Source: Cyanobacteria bacterium P01_A01_bin.123
Lineage (GTDB): Bacteria > Cyanobacteriota > Cyanobacteriia > Phormidesmidales > Phormidesmidaceae
Length of the DNA stretch: 64,000 nucleotides
Assembly: GCA_039815185.1 (NCBI GenBank)
Contig: JBCBZT010000001.1
Location: 64,001-128,000 of the forward strand
Direction: 5' to 3'
Of the stretch, positions 12,001-18,000 are shown piece by piece; within the stretch, counting starts at the first letter, position 1; each line of letters begins with the position of its first letter. The position numbers were made by a program.

Positions 12001-15000
12001 TATGTTGAATGATTTAAATCTCAGTGGTGCTGATCTTTCAGAAACCGATCTCACCAATCAGGTTATGAACAACACCAATCTGGTTAATGCCAATCTGCAA
12101 GGGGCTAATTTAGAAGGGGCCTTTTTACAGGACAGTAATTTAAGTGGTGCCAATTTAACCGGCGTCAACTTGGCAGGTGTTAGGGGCGACTACATTACCA
12201 ACGAGCGGACTATCTTGCCCGACGGCCAACATGCGGCAAGGCCTGCTAACGCAGTCGCCACAGGTGATGCACCTATAAACGGAAGCAATGGCAGCAGGGA
12301 GTTGCAAAACTTTCATTTCTTAGAGGTTTGCCAAGGGCAGGGGGTATCTGATGCCATGCCATATGATCCTGCTACCCTTTCTGAAGGAAGCGTCGCTCTG
12401 ATGACCCTAGTGTCCCCGACACCGGAGCAGGGCTTTGATGTCAGCACCGATTATTTGAGAAACTGGCAATCCACTCAGCTACCAACCGTTTCTGTGGTGG
12501 CGTGCGTACAAGAGAATATGAAGGCTGAACTGATCGAGACCTGCAGTTACTACGGTGAATCAAAAGATGTCGCCATTTTGATTGTCCGCTATCGTAGTGA
12601 ACTCACCGTGACGCTTAGAGCCGCGCAGACTGGAGAGCAAATTGCTCAAACTGTTTTTACACGAGAGGCAAAACCCTGCTCTTCAATAACTTTGGTGAAT
12701 ACAGTGACGGTTCAAAACCCTGAATATTACGTTGAACGACCCGAATCTGAGTTTAGAGACGCGTTAGAAAGCTGGGTTCAACCCCATGTAGGACAACCAT
12801 TCTAAAGCCGAATTTGCTGTAAATGTTTGCGTGGATCTGTGGTGCGGCGATCGCGAATTTTCTCATAAAGCGATCGCTCATCACCACTCAAATCCTTGGG
12901 TGGGGTGATGATAACGCGCACAAGCTGATCCCCACGCCCGCCTTTGCGATCAGGCCAACCTTGGCCCCGCAGCCGTAGCGATTGCCCAGAACGAATACCT
13001 GCAGGCACATTCACCGTCACAGAACCGCTGGGGGTCGGCACTTCAATTTTGCCCCCCAAAACCGACTCATCTGGGGTAATGGGAACCTCGCACACGAGGT
13101 TATCCCCTTCAAACTGAAAGAAATCGTGGTTTAGCAGGTTGACGACAAGATAGACATCCCCTTGACGCTGGGTGTAAGGGTTCATCTGGCCTTTGCCCCG
13201 TAGCCGAATCTTAGTACCCTGTTTAGCACCGGGGGGAATCCGCACATCCACAACGTTATTCCCAATCCTCAGGCGCTTTTGAGTACCGCTGAAGGCTTCA
13301 GATAGGGTGAGGGAAATATTGGCCTCTTGATCGAAGTTAGTCGCTTTGGTACCGGCCCCAGTGGCAAAATTGTCGCCCCCAGGAAAACCGCCCCCAAACC
13401 CACCCGTCCCTGGCGGGGTGCGATAGTTGCTATAGCCTCGACCTGCCCTAGCCCCTGGCGCACCCGTACCCATGCGGCCCAAAAGTTCGTTGATAAACTC
13501 GTCAAAGCTGCCATAGGCACCGAAGTCAAACCCGCCAAAATCTGTCGGGCTACCGGCATAGCCGCCGCCTGCGCGATCTGCTTGCTGCCAATATTGACCA
13601 AACTGGTCGTATTTCTTCCGCTTATCAGCATCAGAGAGAACCTCGTAGGCCTCTGAGACCTCTTTGAATTTGGCTTCTGCTGCTTCATTGCCAGGATTGA
13701 CATCGGGGTGATACTTACGCGCCAGCTTACGGAAGGCACGCTTGATGTCATCGGCACTGGCAGATTTACTGACCCCTAGAACACTGTAATAATCTTTGAA
13801 GCCAGTGGCAGCCATTCCTAACCCTCCCCAAAAGTTTGTCCAAAGGTTCGCTAAAATTTTTGTCGGCACCTCGTAGAGATAGCCTAGCAAACCAAAGGAC
13901 AGAGTCAGGTTCGGTTCTCTCACCGTCGCGATCGCTTTTTTAGCTGCTCGCAGATCCAGCCAGTTGACGCGACTCTTGAACCTGCAACTGGACACAGGGA
14001 ATACGATTGGCTAAGACCGCTCGATCCATCTGGTCAATGTAGATTTCAAGATGAGCATCAACCGGGGCGTCAAACATCAACCGCTGCCCTGGAAATATGA
14101 TCCGCTCAAAGTACCAATCGCTGACGTTAGCAATGCGGGCCACCTGGAGGTGATTGCTGTTATTGGCGTAATAGCAAGTTGTTTGATTTAAACTCATTGT
14201 TTTGTTAATTGTAAAAACTGCTACCAACTCAAATCTGCTGAATCAAGGACGACACCTTACGGGTTTTCAAAGCGAGAGACTATCAAATCTAATTGAGCCA
14301 AAGGTTAACTCAAATGCGACTCATCTTGAGAATAGCGATCTGTATTTTTCTACCTGCATGATTCCCAAAAATCACTGAAAACTTTTATGCAATCGCCCTA
14401 GAAATATCACCGAACGCTGACATCAAAAAACACCGCCCTAAAGCATTGAATTCTCTAATACAGGAAGCTCTGCGCAAAGAGAAGTCAAAAATCAACATTT
14501 GGTTCCTTGGCCCTAGGTTGGTGTCATTATTTAAAGCACCGATTTTCTACACAGGTAGGATTTCTTGGGGAGGAAACACACGTCAACACAGGGTAATCAG
14601 TGATCGTAAAAAAGCGGTTAAGTTCCGATCTAATTCATCCAATCTAGTCCAACCATCAGGGTGAGGCGCTAAATTCGACTGAAATATAGCGCAGCTAGGC
14701 CAATCAGCCCCAGCAAACTCAGCGGAACCCAAAAATCAATCGGTTCAATCATGGCTGACCTCGCACTTTACCCTGATAATAAGCTCCTACTGATATCGGA
14801 AATTGTGCCATGACCCCGGCAGACTGCGTCACCTGGCTGCAAGAGCGAACGGCGCTCAATGCTTTGAGTACAGAAATTTTGACGGCGATCGCACCGCTAT
14901 TGCAAACCCGTCTTATCCCTGCCGACCAGCGCCCCGTTGTCGCGGGCAACATTCCGGATGGGTTGTGGATTTTGCGCCGAGGTAGGGTTGAGAGCGATCT

Positions 15001-18000
15001 GAATCGCCCCCGCCCAATGAGCTATTTGCCAGGGACAGTCATCAACCTGCAAGCGCTGCTGCTGAATCAACCCACCCAGGTCACCCTGATCACCCTAGAT
15101 GAGTGCGAATTTTTGTTTGCCCCTGCCGCCGCCTTTCAAACGGTAGTCGAACAATATCCGGTGATTACCCAACTGTTTACCCGCCGCTTGGCTGAAACCG
15201 TTGCAGAACTCTCGTCTCAGCTCAGTTTTGAACAAGAACGGCAGGCCATCCTGCGTCCTTATCTGGTTACCAAGGCCCGGCGGGGCATCATTGGCCGTAG
15301 CCGCTATGGCCAACGGTTGCGATCGCAGATTAAAGACGCCTCCCAAAGCCGTAGCTCAGTGCTGATTTTTGGTGAACCAGGCCTCGAAAAAGATAATGTG
15401 GCAGCGCTGATTCACTATGGGTCATCTCAGCGCCGAGAGGCGATCATCCAGGTAGACTGCGCTAAGGTGCAAGCGAGCGGTGCCGATTTGTTTGGCCGTG
15501 CTGGCGGTAAACCGGGACTGATTGGAGCCTTAGGAGAAGGCACGCTGGTGCTCAATAACATTCAAGAGTTGCCAGCGGAACTGTTACCCGCGATCGCCCA
15601 TCTACTCAAAACCCAGATCTACTCTCCCGTACGACAGGCCTCTCAGGGCAGCCGTTCTACCGTCAATTTTGCTGGCAATGACCCCGAAAACGCGCCAGAA
15701 AACGCGTTCAAGTCGTCAGTTAAAACCGCTCAAGCCCGGATCATCCTGATTTCAGAAAAGCCGATTCCTGAAATCAATTCCCTAGTGACGCTCAAGATTA
15801 AAACGCCGCCGCTACGGATTCGCAAAGCCGACATCGAAGACTATGTGAACTATTACATCAGCTTAATTTGTCGATCACGGGGAATTAATCGACCCAACCT
15901 GACCCCAGAAGCCCTGCGACGACTACAAGCCTACGATTTCCCAAACAATCTACGAGAGCTGGCTAGCCTAGTAGAACGCTCTCTTTCACAACTCAGTTCG
16001 GGAGCAAACATTACTGAAGAAATCATTTGGCCTTCCCAGAGTAGAAAAAAACAATTTCGCTTTAACCTGCTCAATGCATACCCTGGTTTTCGTAACTTTT
16101 TGCGCAGCCCCTGGTGGCCCGATCGCATTAATTACGGCTTTACCCTGGGATTCTTTGCCCTAGTGGTGGCGATTTTATTCGTGGGACCCCAAACCCGTCA
16201 GGAAAACTTTGCCCTCAATCTGTTTTGGACTTGGTGGTGGCCGCTGATTTTGCTTAGTTTTCCCTTTGTGGGACGGCTTTGGTGTGCTATATGTCCCTTT
16301 ATGATCTACGGCGAAGTGACCCAAAAACTGTCCCTATGGCTGGTGCCACGCCAACTTAAACACTGGCCACGCCAGGAGGCTGAGCGCTGGGGCGGCTGGT
16401 TTCTGTTTAGCCTATTTGTCCTAATTTTGCTGTGGGAAGAACTCTGGGATTTAGAAAATACCGCCTATCTGTCAGCTTGTTTGCTGCTGCTGATTACGGC
16501 AGGTGCGATGATTTTCTCGACCATTTTTGAACGGCGGTTTTGGTGTCGCTATCTGTGCCCAATCGGCGGCATGAACGGTCTGTTTGCCAAACTGTCCATG
16601 ACAGAATTGCGGGCTCAGCAGGGGACCTGTTCAGCAGAGTGTACAACCTATCAATGCTATAAAGGCGGGCCACAAAAAGGTGAAGGTCAAGCAACGAATG
16701 GTTGCCCCCTTTATTCTCATCCGGCTCAACTTGAAGATAACCGCGACTGCGTGTTGTGCATGACCTGTCTGAAAGCCTGCCCCCACCGATCTGTTGAGCT
16801 AAACTGGCGGCCCCCCGGTATCGAGCTGTGGACCACCCACGTCCCCCGCAGCTACGAAGTGGCGCTGCTGCTCTTGCTGCTCGACGCAGTATTTCTCCAT
16901 CGCCTGCCAGAAATTCTAGAGCGGTTGGGGTTGACAGTGGATCTGGGGAATTTTGGTATTCACAGTGTGATAGCTGTTTTCGCCCTATCTCTGCCTGCCC
17001 TGCTACCCCTATTGGCCCACCAAATTCTCAAATTATTCTGTGGTCTTGGCAAGATCAAGCCTAAACCCTTTGTGGACTTGGCCTATGGCTATTTACCCCT
17101 ACTGCTGTGCGCCAGCCTGGCCCATTATTTACATTTGGGCTTAACCGAAGGCGGTCAGGTATTATCAGTCAGCTTTGCGACCTTTGGCTTGAGTCAAGCT
17201 GGTGTGCCCGTCTGGATTGCCCATCCGGCAGTGATTGCCTTTTTGCAAGGGGCAGTGCTGATTGTAGGCGCGATCGCCTCTGTATGGCTATTGCAACGCA
17301 TCGCCCGCCAGCCCTTTCGGCTTTTGTTGCCTCAACACGGCTGCACTTTCGTCTTATGTGGATTACTGTGGCAGGTGATTGTGGGGGTTAGATAAGCGAT
17401 CGCCAGAGCATTATTGGAACGATAAAAAGATTGACAAAATAATGTTAGGTGACGTTGTGTAGGCTGGTGTTTTTAGCAAGTTTCGCGAAAATTAAAATTG
17501 ATAGTCTTAATCAATAACCCAGGCTTCTATCAACCCCTGGAGGAATTTCTCCGTTCGACAAAAATTTGTTGATGTGATCGGCAGTAATTAACGAAGCGGT
17601 CTGCTTGTTAGTGGGAGCTGAAATATGGGGCAAAACCGTGATGTCGGGATGAGACCAAAGCGGGCTTTGGGGCGGCAGGGGTTCTTCATCAAAAACATCC
17701 AAAACGGCATGGGAAAGATGCCTGGTATTCAGATGAGCCACTAAAGCCACTATCTCAACAATTGGGCCGCGGGCAAAATTAATCAGCGATGCCCCCGTCG
17801 GCAGCAGGTTCAAGGTTTCATGGTCCAACAGACCCTGGGTCTCGCTCGTCAACGGCAGCAGGCAAACGAGAATCGTGCTGCGCCGCAGCAAATCGGCAAA
17901 CCCCTGCTTTCCAGTCACTGTGGTGACGCCCTCAATATCAACCCGAGAACGGCTCCAACCGAAAACGGTAAATCCCTGCTGAACTAGCTTTTTTGCTGCC

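Follow-up and report, generated by a model that had tools for sequence, protein, structure and literature searches.

The window analysed here is a stretch of 64,000 nucleotides from contig JBCBZT010000001.1 of Cyanobacteria bacterium P01_A01_bin.123. On its plus strand, positions 14810..17395 carry a gene that encodes a protein of 861 aa. The gene stands alone, with 582 bp of non-coding DNA upstream and a convergent gene downstream. The genes around it encode DnaJ, DUF1830, 2-hydroxyacid dehydrogenase and MBL hydrolase products, and neither a NapG counterpart nor nap or mau genes were found nearby. A dCache-HAMP-cyclase gene lies 2.5 kb downstream. No neighbour of the gene is conserved across 80 cyanobacterial loci or across 43 loci of distant relatives, and the cyclase gene is not kept as a neighbour in the cyanobacterial loci compared. 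This lack of a conserved neighbour fits a self-contained unit. In public databases the gene product is labelled as a sigma-54 transcription regulator ("sigma 54-interacting transcriptional regulator"), and the literature search returned no paper on the protein family. Four parts make up the protein: first a CNB-fold domain, then an AAA+ module of the enhancer-binding-protein (EBP) type and its lid, then a NapH-like membrane module, and finally another bundle of helices. The open reading frame and the Pfam domain rows agree with the preliminary description of this DNA. Judged from its sequence, the product is a membrane protein that has not been studied and is likely to bind iron-sulfur clusters. 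The features are as follows, with the evidence for each in brackets.

14810..17395, plus strand: whole gene (single open reading frame, 861 aa plus stop, ATG start).
14864..15211, plus strand: CNB-fold (cNMP_binding-like) domain, aa 19-134 (Pfam, alignment to MloK1 and Cmr, column counts).
15272..15802, plus strand: EBP-type AAA+ alpha/beta subdomain, catalytically degenerate, aa 155-331 (Pfam, PDB sequence matches, Foldseek, PspF alignment).
15371..15394, plus strand: Walker A remnant GEPGLEKD, aa 188-195 (PspF alignment, counts in 72 orthologues).
15494..15523, plus strand: site of the deleted L1/GAFTGA loop, GRAGGKPGLI, aa 229-238 (PspF alignment, orthologue counts).
15542..15559, plus strand: Walker B remnant TLVLNN, aa 245-250 (PspF alignment, orthologue counts).
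15647..15718, plus strand: lineage-specific low-complexity insert, about aa 280-303 (orthologue lengths, pLDDT).
15815..16030, plus strand: AAA+ lid domain, aa 336-407 (Pfam AAA_lid_14, conservation).
16052..16120, plus strand: conserved linker to the membrane part, aa 415-437 (alignment of 79 relatives, model helices 420-432).
16124..16594, plus strand: NapH-like four-helix membrane module, aa 439-595 (TIGR02163, Fer4_5, hydropathy, model helices).
16283..16297, plus strand: C492-x2-C495-P at the predicted cytoplasmic end of TM2 (hydropathy; invariant in 79 of 79).
16544..16561, plus strand: C579-x3-C583-P at the predicted cytoplasmic end of TM4 (hydropathy; invariant in 79 of 79).
16601..16807, plus strand: predicted cytoplasmic ferredoxin-like domain, aa 598-666 (Pfam, hydropathy, conservation).
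16841..17380, plus strand: C-terminal bundle of about five membrane helices, aa 678-857 (hydropathy, model helices).

The AAA+ module has kept the fold of the EBPs and lost their catalytic motifs. Sigma54_activat (PF00158) matches aa 160-276 with 48.1 bits, over profile positions 1-127 of 168 only. When the model was compared by Foldseek with the AAA+ domains of NtrC1, PspF, FleQ and FlrC, TM-scores of 0.75-0.82 (target-normalised) were obtained; as modelled, the AAA+ fold is intact. With the EBPs PspF, NtrC1, NifA, FleQ and NtrX the module shares the fold, the lid and the motifs GxxGxxK, GGTL, PPLRxR..DI and N.REL....ER, the lid carrying conserved PPLRxRKxDI and NxRELxxxxER. In contrast to these proteins, it lacks the L1/GAFTGA loop and the Walker B Asp-Glu, has Glu at sensor I and a short finger segment, and belongs to a membrane-anchored protein without an HTH, encoded in a genome without sigma-54. 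The preliminary description had read GGKPGL as standing in place of GAFTGA. The PspF alignment shows a deletion instead: nine residues of PspF, GAFTGA among them, are left unpaired, KPGL lines up with residues after the loop, and the segment G229..G244 measures 14 aa in all 72 cyanobacterial orthologues. The Walker A motif does end in K-D as described, with K194 and D195 in 72/72 orthologues; the notable change is the replacement of the Gly preceding the Lys by Glu (E193, 68/72). The reported loss of Walker B holds, its Asp-Glu being replaced by N249-N250 in every orthologue. The sensor I Asn is changed to Glu (E316) in 70/72, and the arginine-finger segment is shortened to 16 aa (72/72), whereas 30 of 40 distant relatives have 28 aa. 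The segment T268..R310 is 41 aa long here and 21 aa in 54/72 orthologues; the insert at about aa 280-303, with a pLDDT of 57-60, is the sole low-confidence part of the model. By these alignments the module appears to lack every element needed for ATP hydrolysis and for contact with sigma-54, and it is presumably no longer an ATPase. N249-N250 and E316 are strictly conserved, which points to a selected function of the AAA+ site that the role of a mere scaffold would not explain. The Walker A Lys, kept in all 72 orthologues, could still allow a nucleotide or another anionic ligand to bind.

The remainder of the protein is built around a membrane module rich in invariant cysteines. Fer4_5 was matched by Pfam in two stretches, and the best family match of this part is TIGR02163 (NapH/MauN; aa 486-664, E 7.7e-14), which bears out the earlier claim of a fusion to a NapH-type polyferredoxin membrane domain. 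The score of 51.8 bits stands against a cut-off of 213.05, and the analogy to NapH is therefore distant; the NapH equivalog reached 40.8 bits against a cut-off of 234. C492xxC495P comes after the helix 467-487 and C579xxxC583P after the helix 552-572, so that of the two CX3CP motifs claimed before, the second stands and the first is a CX2CP. The ferredoxin-like domain contains eight invariant Cys (C607, C611, C616 and C632; C647, C650, C653 and C657). They form one canonical CxxCxxCxxxCP motif, already listed in the preliminary description, and one atypical four-Cys site, C607x3C611x4C616x15C632P (Cx3Cx4Cx15CP), which is equally invariant and had been missed. All twelve Cys are present in the 72 cyanobacterial orthologues and invariant in 79/79 aligned relatives, down to 23% identity and at a mean column identity of 34%. 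The full-length AlphaFold2 model has a mean pLDDT of 93.7 and a pTM of 0.80. According to hydropathy and the model helices, the N-terminal domains, both Cys pairs and the ferredoxin-like domain all lie on one side of the membrane, and the loops there are rich in Arg and Lys. About nine membrane helices are predicted, with a cytoplasmic N terminus and a C terminus that faces outward or into the lumen. No solved structure resembling the membrane part or the C-terminal bundle was matched, so the fold of the membrane part offers no functional anchor.

In NapH, Cys-Pro pairs follow TM2 and TM4 of a four-helix membrane module, and a Cys-rich ferredoxin-like domain comes after them on the same side. 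NapH works with NapG in the NapGH quinol dehydrogenase. The 861-aa protein has in common with NapH/MauN the four-helix module, the Cys-Pro pairs that follow TM2 and TM4, here predicted to be cytoplasmic, and the Cys-rich domain. It differs in the CX2CP form of its first pair, in the atypical Cx3Cx4Cx15CP motif, in about five additional C-terminal helices with no equivalent in NapH, in a 415-aa cytoplasmic CNB/AAA+ extension, in a model score under the cut-off and in the lack of nap genes nearby. We propose, with a probability of roughly 0.55, that the protein is a quinone-pool-linked Fe-S redox protein in which the dead AAA+ module serves as a scaffold. Its conserved core would be the NapH-like module with Cys-Pro pairs at the cytoplasmic ends of TM2 and TM4, together with the cytoplasmic eight-Cys ferredoxin-like domain, which may hold two [4Fe-4S] clusters. 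Electrons would be exchanged, in one direction or the other, between the clusters at the cytoplasmic face and the quinone pool of the membrane, which in cyanobacteria and plastids would be plastoquinol, and the protein would be either a redox enzyme or a transducer of the redox state. The pseudo-ATPase keeps its fold and lid, and the conserved linker, whose L420, L421 and P437 are shared by 90% or more of 79 relatives, would couple the lid to the membrane part. Since the AAA+ module would be able neither to hydrolyse ATP nor to touch sigma-54, it is most likely a platform for docking, oligomerisation or allosteric control.

It is possible, though unlikely, that the protein is instead a redox-controlled regulator, in which the Fe-S membrane module senses and the inactive AAA+ part, as a ring or dimer, delivers the output. 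As the membrane redox state changes, the AAA+ part would bind or release a soluble partner, for instance an enzyme, a transcription factor, or a sigma or anti-sigma factor. The first accounts of NosR and NirI presented them as regulators bound to the membrane. In favour of such a role, the EBP fold and the lid appear to be under selection despite the lost catalysis, the linker to the membrane part is conserved, and the best PDB sequence match of the AAA+ module is VpsR of Vibrio cholerae (7v2b, E 6.8e-15). This atypical EBP lacks conserved EBP residues and yet drives transcription with c-di-GMP, as stated in the abstract of PMC6158489. In our alignment the L1 region of VpsR is short as well, and its Walker B position reads Asn-Asp. 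However, VpsR is a soluble DNA-binding response regulator, whereas the 861-aa protein has neither a receiver nor an HTH and carries an Fe-S membrane domain. Against the regulator also speak the deletion of the L1 loop, the surface with which EBPs touch their target, and the lack of any conserved adjacent partner gene in the 80 + 43 loci.

Rather doubtful is a role as a CcoG-like metal reductase, whose cytoplasmic clusters would reduce Cu(II) or Fe(III) for thylakoid or plastid transporters. An excerpt of PMC8267372, citing earlier work, presents CcoG as a membrane protein with two ferredoxin-like Cys motifs and a reported cupric reductase, and the family studied here is retained in phototrophs with a high metal demand (cyanobacteria and green algae). 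The Fer4_5 polyferredoxins NosR/NirI and CcoG, likewise located in the membrane, also combine Cys-Pro pairs with two ferredoxin-type Cys motifs, but the 861-aa protein has no periplasmic flavin or Ig-like domain. For the membrane part, 10 NCBIfam families were listed at E<=1; none of them is a CcoG model, the closest is NapH/MauN, and NosR scores 19.4 bits against a cut-off of 1000. Moreover, the 80 + 43 loci show no conserved gene for a metal transporter or chaperone next to this one.

The preliminary description had assigned the input of the protein to cAMP or cGMP, which would bind to the N-terminal domain and gate the membrane Fe-S redox module. This proposal is improbable. The cNMP_binding family (PF00027) does match aa 37-116 above threshold, with 30.1 bits against a cut-off of 27.5, and the cyclase gene downstream could be read in the same sense; its position near this gene, however, is not conserved. 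The domain has a degenerate phosphate-binding cassette. In aa 75-93, GTVINLQALLLNQPTQVTL, alignment to the cyclic-nucleotide-binding domain of MloK1 shows the Gly-Glu replaced by Asn-Leu and the Arg-Ser by Thr-Gln. Across the 72 cyanobacterial orthologues the four positions are occupied mainly by N44/H27, L70, A32/V20/T17 and Q46; the Glu and the Arg are missing in all of them, and the Ser is kept in one. Forty distant relatives, by comparison, have G in 40/40, E in 36/40, S/T in 29/40 and R in 11/40, and those retaining cassette residues belong to other bacterial phyla. The full cassette FGE...PRSA is kept in 11 of the 40, so that cyclic nucleotide binding may be the ancestral mode. The best PDB match of the domain is Cmr of M. 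tuberculosis (5w5b), a member of the same fold family; in its aligned cassette, too, both the Gly-Glu and the Arg-Ser/Thr pair are missing. Cmr is a DNA-binding regulator whose activity does not depend on cAMP binding, whereas here the CNB-fold domain stands in front of an AAA+ module in a membrane protein. Furthermore, the domain is missing from cyanobacterial forms of 665-717 aa and from 4/5 algal homologues. In this clade the domain is a dispensable addition, and its ability to bind cAMP or cGMP has probably been lost.

As to the sigma-54 link implied by the public name, Sigma54_DBD, Sigma54_CBD and Sigma54_AID (PF04552, PF04963 and PF00309) gave 0 matches in the source genome (8.09 Mb, completeness 99.99%), while each was matched in 4 of 14 control genomes. 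Neither HTH_8 nor another DNA-binding family is present among the 14 Pfam rows at E<=1, and the EBP equivalog models all score 41-83 bits against cut-offs of 443-999. The absence of an HTH and of rpoN had been described correctly. The reading as a functional sigma-54 activator, or as an active AAA+ ATPase of another kind, is backed by Pfam and NCBI naming only; it is already contradicted by the sequence and has a negligible probability, given these scores, a genome without sigma-54 domains and a protein without GAFTGA, Walker B acids, arginine-finger segment or HTH. With the motif losses fixed in 72 orthologues, the earlier view of an ancient pseudo-EBP, probably unable to activate sigma-54 transcription, is supported. 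A connection between the loss of GAFTGA and the loss of rpoN in cyanobacteria was considered and rejected: the GAFTGA-type pattern occurs in 0 of 97 representatives of at least 700 aa, and these include relatives placed by Atlas and source names in Thermodesulfobacteriota, Planctomycetota and other phyla.

The conservation over cyanobacterial families noted earlier was found again, with 72 orthologues and figures of the same order: matches at E<=1e-40 are present in 87 of 301 sampled genomes of the phylum. They are unevenly distributed, with 85 of 134 genomes in 30 listed families and 1 of 166 in the remaining 10 families. Homologues with 42-50% identity are encoded in the nuclear genomes of green algae. 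The unit of AAA+ module, lid and membrane part persists without the CNB domain in the short cyanobacterial forms and in algae. At the level of sequence, the family is conserved from cyanobacteria to green algae.

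The locus at 14810..17395 (+) is one open reading frame with an ATG start that encodes a protein of 861 aa, and the opposite strand is stop-rich throughout. The gene is solitary. The 582 bp upstream of it contain no long open reading frame, beyond them lie divergent DUF1830 and DnaJ genes, and a 2-hydroxyacid dehydrogenase gene is located downstream in convergent orientation. The Pfam matches of the protein and the nearby genes are as follows.

Features of the 861-aa protein and its surroundings
12802-13995 (-), DnaJ gene
13940-14227 (-), DUF1830 gene, overlapping the start of the DnaJ gene; the pair is divergent from the 861-aa gene
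14810..17395 (+), gene for the 861-aa protein
aa 37-116, cNMP_binding (30.1 bits)
aa 160-276, Sigma54_activat (48.1 bits, profile positions 1-127 of 168 only)
aa 336-407, AAA_lid_14
two stretches of the protein, Fer4_5
aa 642-660, Fer4 (weak rows)
19929-22118 (+), 729-aa dCache_1 / HAMP / class III adenylate-guanylate cyclase gene, 2.5 kb downstream of the 861-aa gene
22296-25214 (+), very large open reading frame of 972 aa, only a weak PhoD-like match
25430-28993 (+), very large open reading frame of 1187 aa

No DNA-binding family was detected in the protein with Pfam. All enhancer-binding protein (EBP) equivalogs of NCBIfam scored 41-83 bits against cut-offs of 443-999 and thus fell far short, and the NapH/MauN subfamily model covers aa 486-664.

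The AAA+ module was aligned with E. coli PspF (pspF), together with ten cyanobacterial orthologues, the Spirulina paralogue, seven distant relatives and three algal homologues (Trebouxia, Edaphochlamys and the Ostreococcus cluster). The Walker A motif GERGTGKE of PspF is replaced by GEPGLEKD, with Glu in place of the Gly that precedes the Lys. Nine PspF residues of the L1 loop, including GAFTGA, have no match in the 861-aa protein, the Walker B Asp-Glu is changed to Asn-Asn and the sensor I Thr-Asn to Ser-Glu, and the stretch bearing the two arginine fingers is shortened by eleven residues. Of the elements compared, the sensor II region (NNLRELxxLVER) alone is retained. The fold itself is predicted to be intact: the full-length AlphaFold2 model reached a mean pLDDT of 93.7 and a pTM of 0.80, and Foldseek matched aa ~155-415 to the AAA+ domains of NtrC1, PspF, FleQ, FlrC and NtrX with target-normalised TM scores of 0.75-0.82. 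The top PDB sequence match of the protein is VpsR, which likewise has a short L1 region and carries Asn-Asp at the Walker B position in the pairwise alignment. The Sigma54_DBD, Sigma54_CBD and Sigma54_AID domains gave no match in the host genome (8.09 Mb, completeness 99.99%), while each of the same searches was positive in 4 of 14 control genomes. Excerpts of two publications describe cyanobacteria as having rpoN rarely or not at all (PMC3162934, PMC12316311). The motif losses and the absence of sigma-54 domains from the genome show that the protein is a pseudo-EBP, and its ATPase activity appears, from these motifs, to have been lost.

These motif states are essentially fixed in the 72 cyanobacterial orthologues, as read from genome contigs: E193 is present in 68, K194, N249 and N250 in all 72, and E316 in 70, and the L1 segment (14 aa) and the finger segment (16 aa) have the same length in every sequence. 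That the Walker A Lys, Glu193, Asn249-Asn250 and Glu316 are kept so strictly suggests selection on the former nucleotide pocket for some role, which the idea of a mere scaffold fails to account for. A low-complexity insert rich in Asn, Pro, Glu and Ala (15647-15718, aa ~280-303, pLDDT 57-60) is located before sensor I. The segment bearing it measures 41 aa here and 21 aa in 54 of the 72 orthologues, so that the insert belongs to this lineage only. A three-copy complex prediction for aa 150-415 scored 0.00, which gives no verdict and says nothing for or against self-association of the AAA+ module.

Hydropathy, the full-length model and a separate model of aa 415-861 (pLDDT 95.7, pTM 0.93) agree on about nine membrane helices. 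With the N-terminal domains taken as cytoplasmic, the cytoplasmic face is predicted to include C492xxC495P, which follows helix 467-487, C579xxxC583P, which follows helix 552-572, and a domain at 598-666; Arg and Lys are abundant in the loops on this side. The domain contains the motifs C607x3C611x4C616x15C632P and C647xxC650xxC653xxxC657P, whose eight cysteines would be enough for two [4Fe-4S] clusters. All twelve cysteines are invariant in the 72 cyanobacterial orthologues and in 79 of 79 aligned sequences, where identity falls to 23% and the mean column identity is 34%. The linker between the lid and the first membrane helix is also conserved (L420, L421 and P437 in at least 90% of the 79 relatives), and, judging by the high pTM of the full-length model, the AAA+ module probably sits in a fixed arrangement on the membrane part. 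The nearest curated family to the membrane half is NapH/MauN, at a score of 51.8 that is far below the cut-off of 213; NosR matches marginally. NapH has no counterpart to the last ~180 aa (five helices). No PDB structure was matched by the membrane model at E<=0.001 in Foldseek, and a wide VIA-align search returned generic helix bundles at a best Z of 7.8, which is uninformative and no proof of a new fold. Caa3_CtaG, proposed as a structural relative by the Atlas, was rejected at a TM of 0.48 as too weak.

We propose, with a probability of roughly 55%, that the protein would act as a quinone-pool-linked Fe-S membrane redox protein, with the pseudo-AAA+ and CNB-like domains serving as non-catalytic regulatory or docking modules. 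The family is a large, strongly conserved membrane protein that probably binds Fe-S clusters. The strongest rival, itself unlikely, is a redox-controlled regulator that holds a partner. No conserved neighbour gene was found across 80 cyanobacterial loci or across 43 metagenome loci of distant relatives. The second-largest neighbour cluster (23 of the 80 loci) comprises mixed signalling proteins of 124-1904 aa and includes the dCache-HAMP-cyclase at 19929-22118, whose adjacency to the family gene is not conserved. A CcoG-like metal reductase is a distinctly improbable reading. No CcoG model is among the NCBIfam families listed for the membrane half.

The preliminary description had proposed that cAMP or cGMP binding is coupled to the membrane Fe-S module. 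A model in which cyclic nucleotides gate the protein is slightly less probable still. HMMER aligned aa 19-129 with the cyclic-nucleotide-binding domain of MloK1, whose phosphate-binding cassette residues Gly-Glu and Arg-Ser are replaced by Asn-Leu and Thr-Gln in the 861-aa protein. The best PDB match to the domain, M. tuberculosis Cmr, likewise lacks Gly-Glu and Arg-Ser in its aligned cassette. At the four positions the 72 orthologues show N44/H27, L70, A32/V20/T17 and Q46. Forms of 665-717 aa from four cyanobacteria with small genomes lack the whole domain, as do four of five algal homologues; the exception among these, Picocystis, has a cNMP_binding match. The degenerate cassette and the loss of the domain in these forms leave cAMP or cGMP as input unsupported for this clade. 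Such input may be the ancestral state: among 40 distant relatives that share the architecture, the cassette Gly is found in 40, Glu in 36 and Ser/Thr in 29, and 11 carry the full FGE...PRSA cassette. That the protein is a true EBP is virtually inconceivable in view of the altered AAA+ motifs and the genome without sigma-54 domains.

The homologue search returned 2178 matches. The best 120 of the 2178 were all 62-98% identical; those named by organism were all cyanobacterial and mostly titled 'sigma 54-interacting transcriptional regulator'. This name, carried by thousands of database entries in a phylum largely without sigma-54, is wrong. Matches at E<=1e-40 occurred in 87 of 301 sampled genomes of the phylum and 59 of 132 genera, namely in 85 of 134 genomes from 30 listed families versus 1 of 166 in the other ten, and about two thirds of the sampled non-picoplanktonic cyanobacterial genomes carry the family, which also occurs in several lineages of green algae. 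A search of representatives gave 412 proteins at E<=1e-30. Among the closest were algal homologues with 42-50% identity from Trebouxia (on contigs up to 4.4 Mb), Edaphochlamys debaryana, Picocystis salinarum and Ostreococcus tauri; a Chlamydomonas incerta protein also turned up. AAA+, lid and Fer4_5 were present in all five algal proteins examined with Pfam.

A quick maximum-likelihood tree was computed from aa 400-700 of 79 rows, none dropped, with an assumed root and a cyanobacterial sample skewed to close relatives. A branch with 100% SH-aLRT separates cyanobacteria, algae and two sequences of 40% identity (P0130, Spirulina; P0139, a metagenome contig) from the 40 distant relatives. The 33 cyanobacterial orthologues have three algal sequences as their sister group (support 90), with the Ostreococcus cluster branching immediately outside. 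The tree fits inheritance of the algal genes through the plastid ancestor and is no proof of it.

By source name or Atlas label, the distant relatives (23-29% identity) are assigned to Thermodesulfobacteriota, Planctomycetota, Armatimonadota, Elusimicrobia, Handelsmanbacteria and Peptococcaceae/Desulfitobacteriaceae, and some have HisKA and receiver domains in place of the CNB domain. Their Walker A is mostly canonical (Gly in 33 of 40, Lys in 35), Walker B Asp is left in 2 and Glu in 3, and a few retain GAF-like loops (GAFAEA, GAFSFA). A GAFTGA-type pattern was found in none of 97 representatives of at least 700 aa. This pattern's absence and the near loss of the Walker B acids in distant relatives argue that the whole family is hydrolysis-dead, with the cyanobacterial and algal clade as apparently its most degenerate branch. 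The family presents a graded series that starts with relatives whose cNMP cassettes and Walker A motifs are intact and ends with the cyanobacterial and algal clade, where degeneracy is complete. It also clearly illustrates how an AAA+ transcription motor can be reused, without catalysis, as a module of a putative membrane redox protein.

Proteins common to cyanobacteria and algal nuclei often belong to photosynthetic or plastid machinery, which makes the family a concrete candidate for knockout. Tentatively, and with the odds against it, the protein could be an unrecognised redox component of the photosynthetic membrane, derived from the cyanobacterial plastid ancestor and still encoded in green-algal nuclei, whose NapH-like Fe-S module would sense the plastoquinone pool or take electrons from it and whose fossilised EBP AAA+ module would relay that state to cytoplasmic or stromal partners. 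If true, redox signalling, or the supply of electrons or of metal-reducing power, would have a new route here, separate from the known kinases, thioredoxins and NDH complexes. Synechocystis slr0593 ('cAMP binding membrane protein') may be the orthologue. One paper tabulates slr0593 among genes down-regulated under iron limitation; this is no evidence for the family. No paper on the CNB/AAA+/Fe-S membrane architecture was found in a literature search that lay outside supplements and most subscription journals; the component parts are of known kinds, and for their combination and function no published description was found.

The 350 bp upstream of the gene at 68 orthologue loci showed no enrichment of NtcA, CRP, HLR1, LexA-like or Fur-like motifs, scanned as short consensuses. 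GTAN8TAC occurred in none of the 68 regions versus 6.8 expected from mononucleotide shuffles, probably an effect of composition or restriction avoidance and not of the biology of this gene.

Several cyanobacterial genomes hold two copies (G038, G074, G091, G107, G173, G179, G261, G273 and G295, also loci L072 and L077), in which either both are orthologue-like or an orthologue is accompanied by a paralogue of ~900-970 aa at 40-44% identity. In the Spirulina paralogue P0130 the Walker A motif (GAPGTGKT) is canonical. Six orthologue matches (G247, G035, G167, G129, G105 and G173) contain a single in-frame stop (TAG, TAA or TGA) within the stretch aligned by tblastn. Since the open frame is almost as long as the match in most of the six, these stops may lie upstream of the true start; a locus with an in-frame TAG in the preliminary description is probably one of them. 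Among the 43 metagenome loci of distant relatives, the top neighbour count belongs to an open reading frame of 131-161 aa without a Pfam family, directly adjoining the gene at four loci.

Neighbouring open reading frames of 131-161 aa, without Pfam family
L105:10576-10971
L125:10486-10971
L123:5956-6393
L089:343-810
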